In this document: in pieces, positions 1,255-12,412 of the stretch
How the letters are laid out: the number at the start of each line of letters is the position of its first letter
Numbering within the stretch: position 1 is the stretch's first letter
Origin: an uncultured archaeon
GTDB taxonomy: Archaea > Asgardarchaeota > Thorarchaeia > Thorarchaeales > Thorarchaeaceae
Reading direction: 5' to 3'
NCBI GenBank assembly: GCA_964648855.1
Contig: CAZYLT010000023.1
Coordinates: forward strand, 1 to 31,003
DNA length: 31,003 nt
Made by a program: the position numbers and the translations under genes
The notes under the pieces: generated by a model
The model's input: the letters and a program-made list of their open reading frames with translations, nothing else
Told to the model about the DNA's origin: nothing
Database searches by the model: none

Positions 1255-2570
1255 TGGCAGAAGAAAAGACGATTAGAATCGATCCCGTAACAAGACTTGA
1301 GGGACATGGTGCATTAACAATCAAAATGGGCAAAGATGGAAAAGTCAAAGACGTTCAATTCAATGTAGGAAGCACGAGATTTTTCGAGAAGTTTCTTGAG
1401 GGTAGACCAATGGAGGAAGCCATTAGGATTGCTCCAAGAATCTGTGGCATCTGTCCGGTCCCTCACCATTTAGCCTCGACAAAGGCGGTGGAAGCAGCTT
1501 GGGATGTTACACCTCCAGAACCAGCAATCAAACTGCGCCGGCTGATGATGGAGGCAAAGCAGCTTTCCTCCCACGCAATTCATTTCTACGCTCTTGCCGC
1601 ACCGGATTTTGTTTTTGGACCTTTTGCCGATCCTGCGGTTAGAAATGTGGCGGCGGTACTCAAGCATCTTCCTGATGTGGCTGTTCAGGCGATTGAATTG
1701 ATGGAGTTTGGTCAGGAGATGTGCAGGACGGTGGGTGCAAAGGCTATACATCCAACAACTGCAATTCCGGGTGGAATGTTATCCCCTCTTAGCGAAGAAG
1801 AACGTGACAAATGGCTAGGAGAAGTGCCTAATCTTCTGGAAAACATAAACAAGACCGTCGACCTTGCCAAAAAGGTAGTCACTGACTATGTAGATGTTGT
1901 GACAAAGGTTGCTGTTACTCCAACCTACTATCTTGGATTGACCAATGATGGAGTCCTGGATATCTACGAAGGCAATGTTCGAGTAATGGACCCCGACGGG
2001 AAGATAGTAGCTGATTTTGAACCAAGTGAGTACACAACATACTATGGTGAACATATTCCTAACCATTCTTACGCTACTCATACATACTTCAAACCTGCTG
2101 GGTATCCCGATGGAATCTGGCGTGCCAATACCCTGGCACGATGCAACGTAGTTGACAAGATGGCTACTCCACTGGCTCAAGAAGCCCTTGAAGAGATGCG
2201 TGAACTGATTGGACGGCCATCACACCACACTTTCGCCTTTCATTACGCTCGAGTTGTCGAAATGGTTCAGGCTGCGGAATGGATTAAGACATTGCTTGAA
2301 GATCCAGATATTGTCAGTACTGATATCAAGTTATCAGACGTCGAGCCAAAGGCAGGTGATGGCGTTGGCATAGTTGAGGCACCACGAGGAACTCTTCTGC
2401 ACAATTACGAATGCGACGAAGATGGGATAGTTTTGAAAGCAAATCTCATCGTGGCAACCAACAACAATATTGCGGGGATTGAGAAATCATTGATGGTGGC
2501 CGCAAAGCAGATCTTTGAAGACAAAGCCCATGAGGAACTCGAATTACCTGACCCACTCGTTAAAACATAA
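1254..2570 (+). CDS. vhuA: Group 3c hydrogenase large subunit, split (VhuA) type, lacking the C-terminal L2 motif
   Basis: IDPVTRLEGH N-terminus, L1 motif RICGICPVPH, VEAPRGTLLH and ANLIVAT. Ends at TAA 2568-2570 without DPCxxCxxH. Confidence 0.93.
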   Translation: MAEEKTIRIDPVTRLEGHGALTIKMGKDGKVKDVQFNVGSTRFFEKFLEGRPMEEAIRIAPRICGICPVPHHLASTKAVEAAWDVTPPEPAIKLRRLMMEAKQLSSHAIHFYALAAPDFVFGPFADPAVRNVAAVLKHLPDVAVQAIELMEFGQEMCRTVGAKAIHPTTAIPGGMLSPLSEEERDKWLGEVPNLLENINKTVDLAKKVVTDYVDVVTKVAVTPTYYLGLTNDGVLDIYEGNVRVMDPDGKIVADFEPSEYTTYYGEHIPNHSYATHTYFKPAGYPDGIWRANTLARCNVVDKMATPLAQEALEEMRELIGRPSHHTFAFHYARVVEMVQAAEWIKTLLEDPDIVSTDIKLSDVEPKAGDGVGIVEAPRGTLLHNYECDEDGIVLKANLIVATNNNIAGIEKSLMVAAKQIFEDKAHEELELPDPLVKT

Positions 2571-2579
2571 ACAACGGAG

Positions 2580-2741
2580 TTGAAACAAATAACAGACGAT
2601 ATACCCGAAGGACTGCTCAATCTCTTGGAGATGGTGGTCCGCTGCTACGACTGCTGACTATCCTGCGGCGCTCATCTTACCATCGTGGACGATGAGGGTC
2701 GCGAGATAGCACGGAAGGAGATTGTAACCAGCGGTGGATGA
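2580..2741 (+). CDS. vhuU: VhuU selenoprotein: small hydrogenase subunit carrying the L2 Ni-ligand motif; Sec at TGA 2655-2657 (absent from the ORF track)
   Basis: Hand translation: LKQITDDIPEGLLNLLEMVVRCYDC-U-LSCGAH-LTIVDDEGREIARKEIVTSGG-stop. This matches the EGLLNxxEMxxRAYDPCLSCATH end of MvhA, with TGA at the Ni-ligating Cys and conservation continuing past it. Start uncertain (TTG 2580 or ATA 2589 behind GGAG 2576-2579). Confidence 0.92.
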
Positions 2742-2797
2742 AGGTTCGGCGTAAAGTTGTGAGCCGGGCCGGACAGACCCTGCAAGGGTCAAGCTGG
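2728..2797 (+). promoter_or_regulatory. Eukaryote-like SECIS element 1
   Basis: AUGA (2738-2741, overlapping the vhuU stop), then A. An 8-bp helix GGUUCGGC 2743-2750 / GCCGGGCC 2763-2770 closes the loop GUAAAGUUGUGA, which contains AAA. G-GA-C follows at 2771-2774. Possible basal pairing CCAGC 2728-2732 / GCUGG 2793-2797, with an inserted hairpin GACCCU-GCA-AGGGUC at 2776-2790. Confidence 0.72.
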
Positions 2798-2812
2798 ATC
2801 TTCTCTGTAAGG

Positions 2813-2869
2813 TTATTCCTCTAATGAGTTAAGGATTAGGACCCAAATCTCGTTCTGAAAGAGGAATGA
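2813..2869 (+). promoter_or_regulatory. Second, degenerate SECIS-like / kink-turn hairpin
   Basis: 10-bp basal helix UUAUUCCUCU 2813-2822 / AGAGGAAUGA 2860-2869 enclosing AUGA 2824-2827 and UGA 2856-2858. The upper helix is only partly paired (GGAUU/AAUCU). Confidence 0.5.
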
Positions 2870-3094
2870 TTCATGACAGTCAAGGCTTATGCATTAAAAA
2901 TCTATATCTGCAATACCCGCCAATATCGCCACCAACAAGAGCAGCCCATTGATTTACCGTCCAGTGTCTGATAACATGTCAAAAATGATTATTTGTGTGG
3001 TACATAATGTGGCTTTTCAGCGCAAGTGTGACATGTAAACACAAGCACAGGTGTCGATACATAAGGTAATAAGCAAACTTTGCTCGGAATTTGA

Positions 3095-3207
3095 TGCAGG
3101 TACCAATATCGTATGCGCACATACTCCAGATGAGACAGTTACTGGATTTCCCAATACACTTCTTTCAGAGATTTACGCTACTTTTCAAGACCTGCAAACC
3201 GCATACG
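3095..3207 (+). ncRNA. Candidate structured cis-regulatory 5' leader (pseudoknot) of the ssb gene
   Basis: Two perfect, crossing long-range helices: UGCAGGU 3095-3101 / ACCUGCA 3190-3196 and CGUAUGCG 3110-3117 / CGCAUACG 3200-3207. There is also an internal hairpin UCCAG 3125-3129 / CUGGA 3142-3146. The element ends 13 nt before the ATG. Confidence 0.45.
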
Positions 3208-11966: not shown

Positions 11967-12412
11967 CACAAACCAAGACAAATTCATCTCAGTCTGATTC
12001 TGACGAGTGGGAACCACAGATAGTGGCGTTTTGTTGCAACTGGTGCAGCTATGCTGGGGCCGACCTTGCCGGCACATCACGCATTCAATATGCCCCAAAT
12101 GCACGCATCATTCGAGTGAATTGTACAGGGCGTATCACGCCTGAATTCATTCTATCTGCTCTGGAGATGGGTGCAGATGGTGTGTTAGTGTCGGGTTGTC
12201 ACCCAGGAGACTGTCATTATACAAACGGAAACCTAAAGGCTCGTGCCCGATGGGCTCTGATGGAAAAGGCCATTGAGCAATCGGGGTTGGATCCACGAAG
12301 AGTCAGGCTGCAATGGGCATCAGCCTCTGAGGCGCAAATATTTGCAGATGGAGTCAATAAACTAACAGAACAAGTGAGAGATCTTGGACCAATCAGGAGA
12401 AACTGGAAATGA
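11963..12412 (+). CDS. mvhD: Methyl-viologen-reducing hydrogenase delta subunit ([2Fe-2S]), Cys-only form
   Basis: FCCNWCSYAGADLAG, RVNCTGR, GCHPGDCHY and WASASE; ATGA overlap with hdrA. Confidence 0.95.
   Translation: MTQTKTNSSQSDSDEWEPQIVAFCCNWCSYAGADLAGTSRIQYAPNARIIRVNCTGRITPEFILSALEMGADGVLVSGCHPGDCHYTNGNLKARARWALMEKAIEQSGLDPRRVRLQWASASEAQIFADGVNKLTEQVRDLGPIRRNWK

Follow-up and report, generated by a model that had tools for sequence, protein, structure and literature searches.

Locus and Host Genome

The window, by which we mean the whole stretch of 31,003 nucleotides that was analysed, is contig C23 of a MAG of 3.1 Mb with 44.7% GC, and every one of the closest relatives of this genome is labelled Thorarchaeota. 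The gene order in the region is vhuG (334-1254), vhuA (1254-2570), which encodes a truncated large subunit, and then the small ORF vhuU; vhuA and vhuU share one frame and are separated by a single TAA. The product of vhuU is a small selenopeptide, from which the split [NiFeSe] hydrogenase large subunit obtains its C-terminal Ni-binding motif, DCU-LSC-GAH. With TGA 2655-2657 read as Sec, the peptide ends ...RCYDC-U-LSCGAH-LTIVDDEGREIARKEIVTSGG-stop. Two features define the gene:

2580-2741, + strand: vhuU coding region, supported by its translation and by orthologue peptides; Cys homologues read DCCLSC at the same position.
2655-2657, + strand: Sec codon UGA, in frame and followed by 27 conserved sense codons and then the stop; it aligns with Cys in two homologues, L129 and L130.

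The start codon of vhuU is uncertain. TTG 2580, which lies immediately 3′ of a GGAG, is a candidate; ATA stands at 2589-2591, where most orthologues and the paralogue on contig C6 have an ATG start (K-M-T-D-D), and a same-genus relative (L012) likewise has Ile at this position.

The genome contains a Sec machinery, with a tRNA-Sec (C6:55144-55234), a SelB that scores 281 bits and lies above the curated cut-off, a SepSecS that scores 471 bits, and a SelD that itself has a Sec codon. The genes for tRNA-Sec, SepSecS and SelB/EFsec are clustered within ~3.5 kb (G000:C6:55144-58639), ~40 kb from a second vhuA-vhuU locus on the same contig. Three Sec-containing ORFs were found in the genome, namely the two vhuU copies and selD. 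The MvhD/FlpD homologues, one at 12020-12388 of the window and the others at seven other loci, were ruled out as further selenoproteins; none of the eight has an in-frame TGA, and all are Cys forms.

Structure of the Element at the End of vhuU

The initial annotation, made from the sequence alone, had placed at the end of vhuU an AUGA-A...G-GA-C core, an 8-bp helix with an AAA-containing loop, and an extra 6-bp hairpin on the 3′ side of the basal loop, the whole lying about 80 nt past the Sec codon and the UGA of the core serving as the vhuU terminator. All of these parts are present, and RNAfold on 2720-2805 reproduces the structure, with an unpaired GGUGGAUGAA between helix 1 and helix 2. 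When more flank is added, an outer helix (GGAGAU/AUCUUC) stacks beneath helix 1 (z = -2.45); single-sequence z-scores for the element range from -1.6 to -2.5. The in-frame TGA that ends vhuU lies inside ATGA 2738-2741, 84 nt after the Sec TGA. The parts of the element, which spans 2717-2803, are as follows:

2717-2722, + strand: 5′ strand of the outer helix, GGAGAU, within codons R-K-E-I; pairs with 2798-2803 in the MFE fold.
2728-2732, + strand: 5′ strand of basal helix 1, CCAGC, within the last vhuU codons; pairs with 2793-2797.
2736-2742, + strand: bulged strand of the K-turn-like core, with G2736 (-1b), G2737, A2738 and U2739 (loop L1-L3), G2740 and A2741 (tandem G.A pairs) and A2742 (3b).
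2739-2741, + strand: vhuU stop codon, U2739-G2740-A2741, inside AUGA 2738-2741.
2743-2770, + strand: upper helix 2 and apical loop; 2743-2750 pairs with 2763-2770 (8 bp, no mismatch) around a 12-nt loop at 2751-2762, GUAAAGUUGUGA.
2771-2775, + strand: non-bulged strand of the core, with GGAC at 2771-2774: G2771 (3n), G2772 and A2773 (partners of A2741 and G2740), C2774 (-1n, can pair with G2736) and A2775.
2776-2790, + strand: third helix (the extra hairpin), 2776-2781 pairing with 2785-2790 (6 bp, GCA loop), inserted in the non-bulged strand.
2793-2803, + strand: 3′ sides of two helices, GCUGG 2793-2797 for helix 1 and AUCUUC 2798-2803 for the outer helix, from folds and alignment.

The core is predicted to have the geometry of a K-turn. 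By sequence and topology it matches what is expected of a k-junction, with a 3-nt loop, tandem G.A/A.G pairs, an invariant G2736 and C2774, and a hairpin on the non-bulged strand. The tandem pairs would be G2740.A2773 and A2741.G2772, with A2742.G2771 as the 3b.3n pair and G2736-C2774 at -1b/-1n. As this assignment makes G2737-A2738-U2739 the loop, G2740 position 1b and A2741 position 2b, the stop codon would sit at L3, 1b and 2b of the turn.

Conservation and Covariation in Thorarchaeota

Twenty-five Thorarchaeota vhuU loci were aligned with MAFFT, and a consensus structure was obtained with RNAalifold. The gene ends in GG-N-AUGAA, with the stop inside the core, in all 25 loci, and the consensus has four helices. 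In this alignment 93.3% of paired cells are complementary, compared with 51% when partners are slid by one column, and changes on both sides of a pair occur in 48 cells, compared with 16.2 in shuffles, none of 500 reaching the observed value. Covariation of the helix in orthologous loci, which the initial annotation had named as a test, is seen at seven of the eight pairs of upper helix 2, where 94% of cells are paired. Helix 1 has 85.6% of its cells paired and two-sided changes at two of its five pairs; the outer-helix consensus GGAG/CUCC is 97% paired across the 25 sequences, and the third helix, in which the closing pair may be AU, CG or GC, has 98% of its cells paired.

The positions invariant in these sequences are G2736, A2738, U2739, G2740, A2741, A2742, A2773 and C2774, and G2772 is nearly so; the apical A2754 and A2755 are likewise invariant. 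The core nucleotides that do not vary among orthologues are those that the predicted K-turn would require. Within the same genome, the vhuU of the second vhu locus (L002, on contig C6) is 93% identical. Its helix 2 carries three substitutions in the 3′ arm, all of which keep pairing (G-C to G-U once, and G.U to A-U twice), and its downstream hairpin has another sequence with pairing retained.

Distribution Across the Phylum and Model Searches

A phylum sample of 300 genomes gave a vhuU match in 211, and pooling all fetched vhuU loci yielded 62 distinct 3′ ends, the counts from which are not independent since the genomes are related. The stop UGA falls within an NUGA core in 61 of the 62 ends (AUGA in 55, U/CUGA in 6), Sec codon and stop are 84 nt apart in 58 ends and 96 nt apart in the other 4, and the 3′ core trinucleotide is GAC or AAC across the phylum. 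The sole exception, L084, stops at UAG and has a complete SECIS ~22 nt downstream, in which all three helices differ in sequence and the layout is the same. Alignments were used for these counts because a strict helix finder that allowed no mismatch missed 21 of the 62 ends, owing to mismatches at the base of the stem. The exact three-helix topology is the RNAfold MFE structure for 33 of 61 sequences vs. 9 of 305 shuffles; in many of the sequences without it, the energy model pairs nucleotides across the K-turn.

Two Cys homologues of vhuU lack the element. L129 ends in a UAA stop and has neither the stem nor the AAA loop. In L130 (G069:C63:34000-34800, Thorarchaeota), helix 2 and the AAA loop are gone, and a UGA stop and a downstream GAC are retained, a pattern that suggests a SECIS in decay since Sec was replaced by Cys.

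Scoring with a covariance model built from Asgard elements, another check named at the outset, also recovered the element. The model, R1, drew on only 11 vhuU elements, all AT-rich and Lokiarchaeia-like (family f9 in the phylum search), and its top match on both strands of the 31-kb window was 2724-2803, with 18.7 bits, an E-value of ~0.008 and every helix aligned. A strict core/stem descriptor, scanned over both strands of the 3.1-Mb genome, gave 27 sites, three of which coincide with the stop codons of selD and the two vhuU copies; simple arithmetic puts the chance matches expected per gene end at ~1e-4. The sites at C1:51291, C25:6854 and C6:97740 lie within or after ordinary ORFs, and with ~24 background sites the descriptor is by itself unspecific. 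When both strands of 2400-3100 were scanned against Rfam with cmscan at E<=10, no SECIS family scored, eukaryotic models such as SECIS_1 included, and the only matches were two weak and irrelevant ones (STnc310 and CRISPR-DR63). By these comparisons of sequence and predicted fold, the element is real and conserved.

Elements of selD and vhuD

The overlap of stop and core is found in another gene as well. In Thorarchaeota selD the stop UGA lies in an [A/G/C]UGA core, 990 nt after the Sec codon, at all 21 loci, so that this SECIS would act at long range and not on its own UGA. The RNAalifold consensus for selD has a 7-bp closing helix (GAGACCG/CGGUCUC), a 3-bp UCC/GGA stem, an upper stem and a covarying side hairpin. 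The selD of the source genome (G000:C12 ~37111, - strand; L114:1225-1318:-) ends at a UGA that belongs to its own type II SECIS, as part of a GUGA core, and its Sec is near the N-terminus.

Seven vhuD genes from AT-rich Loki-type genomes all have their stop in, or next to, the 5′ half of the SECIS. Two of them stop at the core UGA, three have the stop somewhere between 4 nt upstream of the AUGA and just past it, and two have it 9-21 nt upstream; UAG, UAA and UGA all occur. The vhuD/hdrA elements (L153-L159 and L151, from AT-rich Loki-type genomes and one other Asgard family) are laid out as in vhuU, with a closing helix that is often CCGAA/UUCGG, an AUGA, an 8-9-bp stem, a GAC, replaced in one by GAG, and, enclosed within, a short hairpin whose loop contains GCA.

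Relation to Known SECIS Classes

Asgard SECIS elements have been proposed as an evolutionary link between archaeal and eukaryotic selenocysteine systems, and a 2018 paper by Liu is reportedly devoted to the SECIS of Thorarchaeota. The present element is of the eukaryote-like AUGA/GA type and not of the methanogen GAA_A type, as the initial annotation had concluded. For Asgard eSECIS-like elements of type I (model of Huang 2024) the core is 5′-[A/G]UGA...[G/A]A-3′, found here as AUGA 2738-2741 and GA 2772-2773; the stem has 7-15 bp with at most two mismatches and the loop 8-20 nt with 5′ adenines, the vhuU element having 8 bp, no mismatches and 12 nt. Location at the 3′ end of a Sec-UGA gene is seen in vhuU, in a genome with tRNA-Sec, SelB, SepSecS and SelD, and the compensatory changes expected of the type are found at 7/8 upper-stem pairs, together with the match by the model built from family f9.

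The stop-overlapping core has precedents. In Lokiarchaeum VhuU.1 the AUGA doubles as the UGA stop (Mariotti 2016, PMC4989117), and this lokiSECIS belongs to the same gene family as the element described here and shares with it a 3′ [G/A]A. The Lokiarchaeum element has a ~9-bp stem and an A-rich apical loop of ~11 nt (PMC4989117), whereas ours comes from Thorarchaeota and is GC-rich, its stem being of 8 bp and its 12-nt loop beginning with GUAAA and not AAAAA. It also has GA where Lokiarchaeum VhuU has a 3′ AA, and an enclosed 3′ hairpin that is absent from the main-text account (PMC4989117). The element also agrees with the eSECIS-like type I structures of Thorarchaeia frhA/vhuU, for which AUGA_GA cores and stops that often overlap the AUGA were reported (PMC11227280); G[U/G]AAA apical loops were reported for most Thorarchaeia frhA and GUGA_GA for Thorarchaeia selD (Huang 2024, PMC11227280), and the vhuU element has a GUAAA loop. 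The model of that study comprises core, upper stem and apical loop, with everything else taken as 'internal loop and lower stem', whereas the three-way layout is favoured here. It obtained nothing significant with SECISearch3 on Asgard genes (Huang 2024, PMC11227280), with which the negative Rfam scan agrees.

Although the initial annotation had implied that the overlap of stop and core was novel, it was published for Lokiarchaeum VhuU.1 in 2016 (PMC4989117) and generalised in 2024 (PMC11227280), so the vhuU finding is correct and not new. The locus is a clean Thorarchaeota case of the published rule that a SECIS core can double as a stop. The comparison adds that the overlap is near-universal in vhuU (61/62) and in Thorarchaeota selD (21/21), that the element would act on a UGA 990 nt off and not on its internal UGA, and that a third helix left out of the published models is present in all elements inspected.

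The AUGA...GA quartet and the unpaired apical adenines are shared with eukaryotic SECIS elements; like these, the Asgard element would act from the 3′ end over long distances, 990 nt in the case of selD, and leave a UGA that is too close without recoding. Unlike eukaryotic elements, which lie in the 3′UTR and are bound by SBP2, the vhuU element has its 5′ half in coding sequence, and SBP2 is reported absent from Asgard genomes (PMC4989117, PMC11227280); its upper stem is also shorter, it has no Rfam match, and it carries an extra helix on the 3′ strand. With the SECIS of Methanococcales and Methanopyrus it has in common that it is an archaeal element adjoining the 3′ end of the same hydrogenase genes, and methanogen vhuD/hdrA elements also have AUGA and GAC/AAC (PMC4989117). 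Unlike the methanogen GAA_A SECIS, however, it has no such bulge and no three G-C/C-G pairs above it, helix 2743-2750/2763-2770 being uninterrupted.

The Third Helix

The hairpin at 2776-2790 has counterparts well beyond this locus. A third helix is conserved in vhuU of all five Asgard families inspected, its loop usually containing GC(A), and it covaries in Thorarchaeota selD (GCCGY-CGCRA-GCGGC, between GAGGA and the closing CGGUCUC). It is also found in the vhuD elements inspected, from AT-rich Loki-type genomes and those of one other family. The main texts of Mariotti 2016 (PMC4989117) and Huang 2024 (PMC11227280) do not describe this helix, and no account of it was found among the searched papers that name SECIS together with a three-way junction or a k-junction. 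It could well be previously undescribed, a view on which we stop just short of calling it probable.

Asgard SECIS elements may be three-way, k-junction-like structures and not simple stem/internal-loop/stem hairpins of the eukaryotic kind, a proposal that we make tentatively and with nearly as much confidence as doubt. The hairpin would enter the non-bulged strand directly after the GA(C), and the closing helix would take its 5′ strand from the end of the CDS. The position of hairpin 2776-2790 after GA-C-A on the non-bulged strand is that of the hairpin in the k-junctions of TPP riboswitches and H. marismortui 23S rRNA (Wang 2014, PMC4005666), a likeness of secondary-structure topology only; selD differs in having a 3-bp canonical stem, UCC/GGA, between the core and the branch point. 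In lineages without SBP2, the role of the third helix could be to pre-organise the kink or to bind a factor, and with the stop fixed in the 5′ strand each terminating ribosome would reset the element. The helix gives structure probing, and efforts to find a SECIS-binding factor in Asgard archaea, something definite to aim at.

A lower-stem pairing has been drawn differently, between [U/C]GG 5′ of AUGA and C[C/U][A/G] in what we regard as the third helix (Huang 2024). With runs of G and C that do not vary, most sequences allow either pairing; a separate hairpin is favoured by L084 and by the covariation of the closing pairs, and the lower-stem pairing was set aside.

Proposed Working and Alternative Explanations

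We consider that 2717-2803 is very probably a functional vhuU SECIS of the Asgard eukaryote-like type I, which would recruit a SelB complex and whose stop would be read as the element melts. A core of K-turn type (AUGA 2738-2741 opposite GA 2772-2773) would form at the base of the 8-bp stem, capped by the GUAAA loop. Folded in this way, the SECIS would recruit archaeal SelB/EFsec-GTP-Sec-tRNASec to ribosomes paused at UGA 2655, 84 nt upstream, and a K-turn-binding adaptor may take part in the recruitment of SelB. With UGA 2655 in the A site, a ribosome would extend no further than ~2670 and would leave 2717-2803 folded. When UGA 2739 occupies the A site, the mRNA channel would hold ~2724-2754, a span in which helix 1 has its 5′ strand and helix 2 its 5′ arm, with the core between them, so that the SECIS would by then be melted. 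A SECIS folded at the first UGA and melted at the second would make UGA 2655 recodable and UGA 2739 not; UGA 2739-2741 would then be read by a release factor as a stop, and the SECIS would refold once termination is over. Unfolding may be the basis on which the two UGA codons are told apart, and melting under the terminating ribosome, as the initial annotation had proposed, is a reasonable explanation of the discrimination. Comparative support comes from selD, whose stop UGA is likewise in the core, 990 nt past the Sec codon. The explanation matches published arguments from proximity. Earlier authors linked the proximity of the stop, often overlapping AUGA in Asgard genes, to stop discrimination (Huang 2024, PMC11227280), and attributed the non-recoding of nearby UGA stops to proximity or a minimal distance (Mariotti 2016, PMC4989117).

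Less far-reaching readings of the locus were weighed against this one. The AUGA/GA hairpin might be a chance match without a role in Sec decoding, as could be argued from the ~24 further genome sites that fit the descriptor without selenoprotein context, from the empty Rfam result and from single-sequence z-scores of merely -1.6 to -2.5. Such a coincidence is exceedingly improbable, however; the helices covary around invariant core nucleotides, the element is kept across the phylum, an independent covariance model finds it and the Cys homologues are without it, so that the comparative data already contradict this view. Another reading would detach hairpin 2776-2790 and its pyrimidine-rich tail from the SECIS and see in them a signal for termination or 3′-end stability that merely abuts it. 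Most Thorarchaeota orthologues do have a CUCCUUC tract and T-rich tracts after the hairpin, which is, moreover, missing from the published Asgard SECIS models. Yet helix 1 encloses the hairpin and draws its own 5′ strand from the coding sequence, which makes the hairpin an internal branch and not a terminal stem. Equivalent enclosed hairpins of other sequence, with covariation, occur in the selD and vhuD SECIS, and L084 keeps the layout with all three helices changed in sequence; a separate termination signal thus seems improbable, though less so than a chance match.

The alternative that deserves most weight accepts a true SECIS and denies the overlap of stop and core any discriminating role. 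It holds that the overlap is a by-product of genome compaction: the SECIS is always at the end of the CDS, its core needs a UGA, the frame happens to use it, and any UGA so near the SECIS would escape recoding anyway. The seven Loki-type vhuD genes fit this account, having their stop in or beside the 5′ half of the SECIS and the core UGA in only two, with all three stop codons in use, and so does the L084 vhuU, with its UAG and displaced SECIS, which indicates that the overlap is not obligatory. The published explanation of non-recoded UGA stops likewise invokes a minimal distance and not the overlap itself (Mariotti 2016). Against compaction stands the fixation of the overlap in 61/62 vhuU ends, from deeply divergent families both GC-rich and AT-rich, and in 21/21 Thorarchaeota selD, which has the look of selection more than of drift. 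Common descent and a dual constraint, on the protein tail and on the RNA, could still be what froze it. We regard compaction as rather less likely than not, while granting it appreciable weight.

Sequence Downstream of the Element

A hairpin with a 10-bp stem at ~2811-2871 shows no conservation and no match to the SECIS covariance model at E<=10. It lies near the start of a region, window 2806-3050, in which ~215 nt between the SECIS and a conserved TCGA(T/C)ACATAAGGTAATAAGC block are unique in this genome; the stretch is missing from the same-genus relatives L012 and L042. Alignment columns 103-114 (window ~2798-2806) contain (CA)CCUCCUU or CUCCUU after most Thorarchaeota vhuU elements. The tract resembles the 3′ end of 16S rRNA, which may be coincidental. 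Tracts of the CCUCCUU type pair with the AAGGAG of the conserved R-K-E codons and so make the outer helix.
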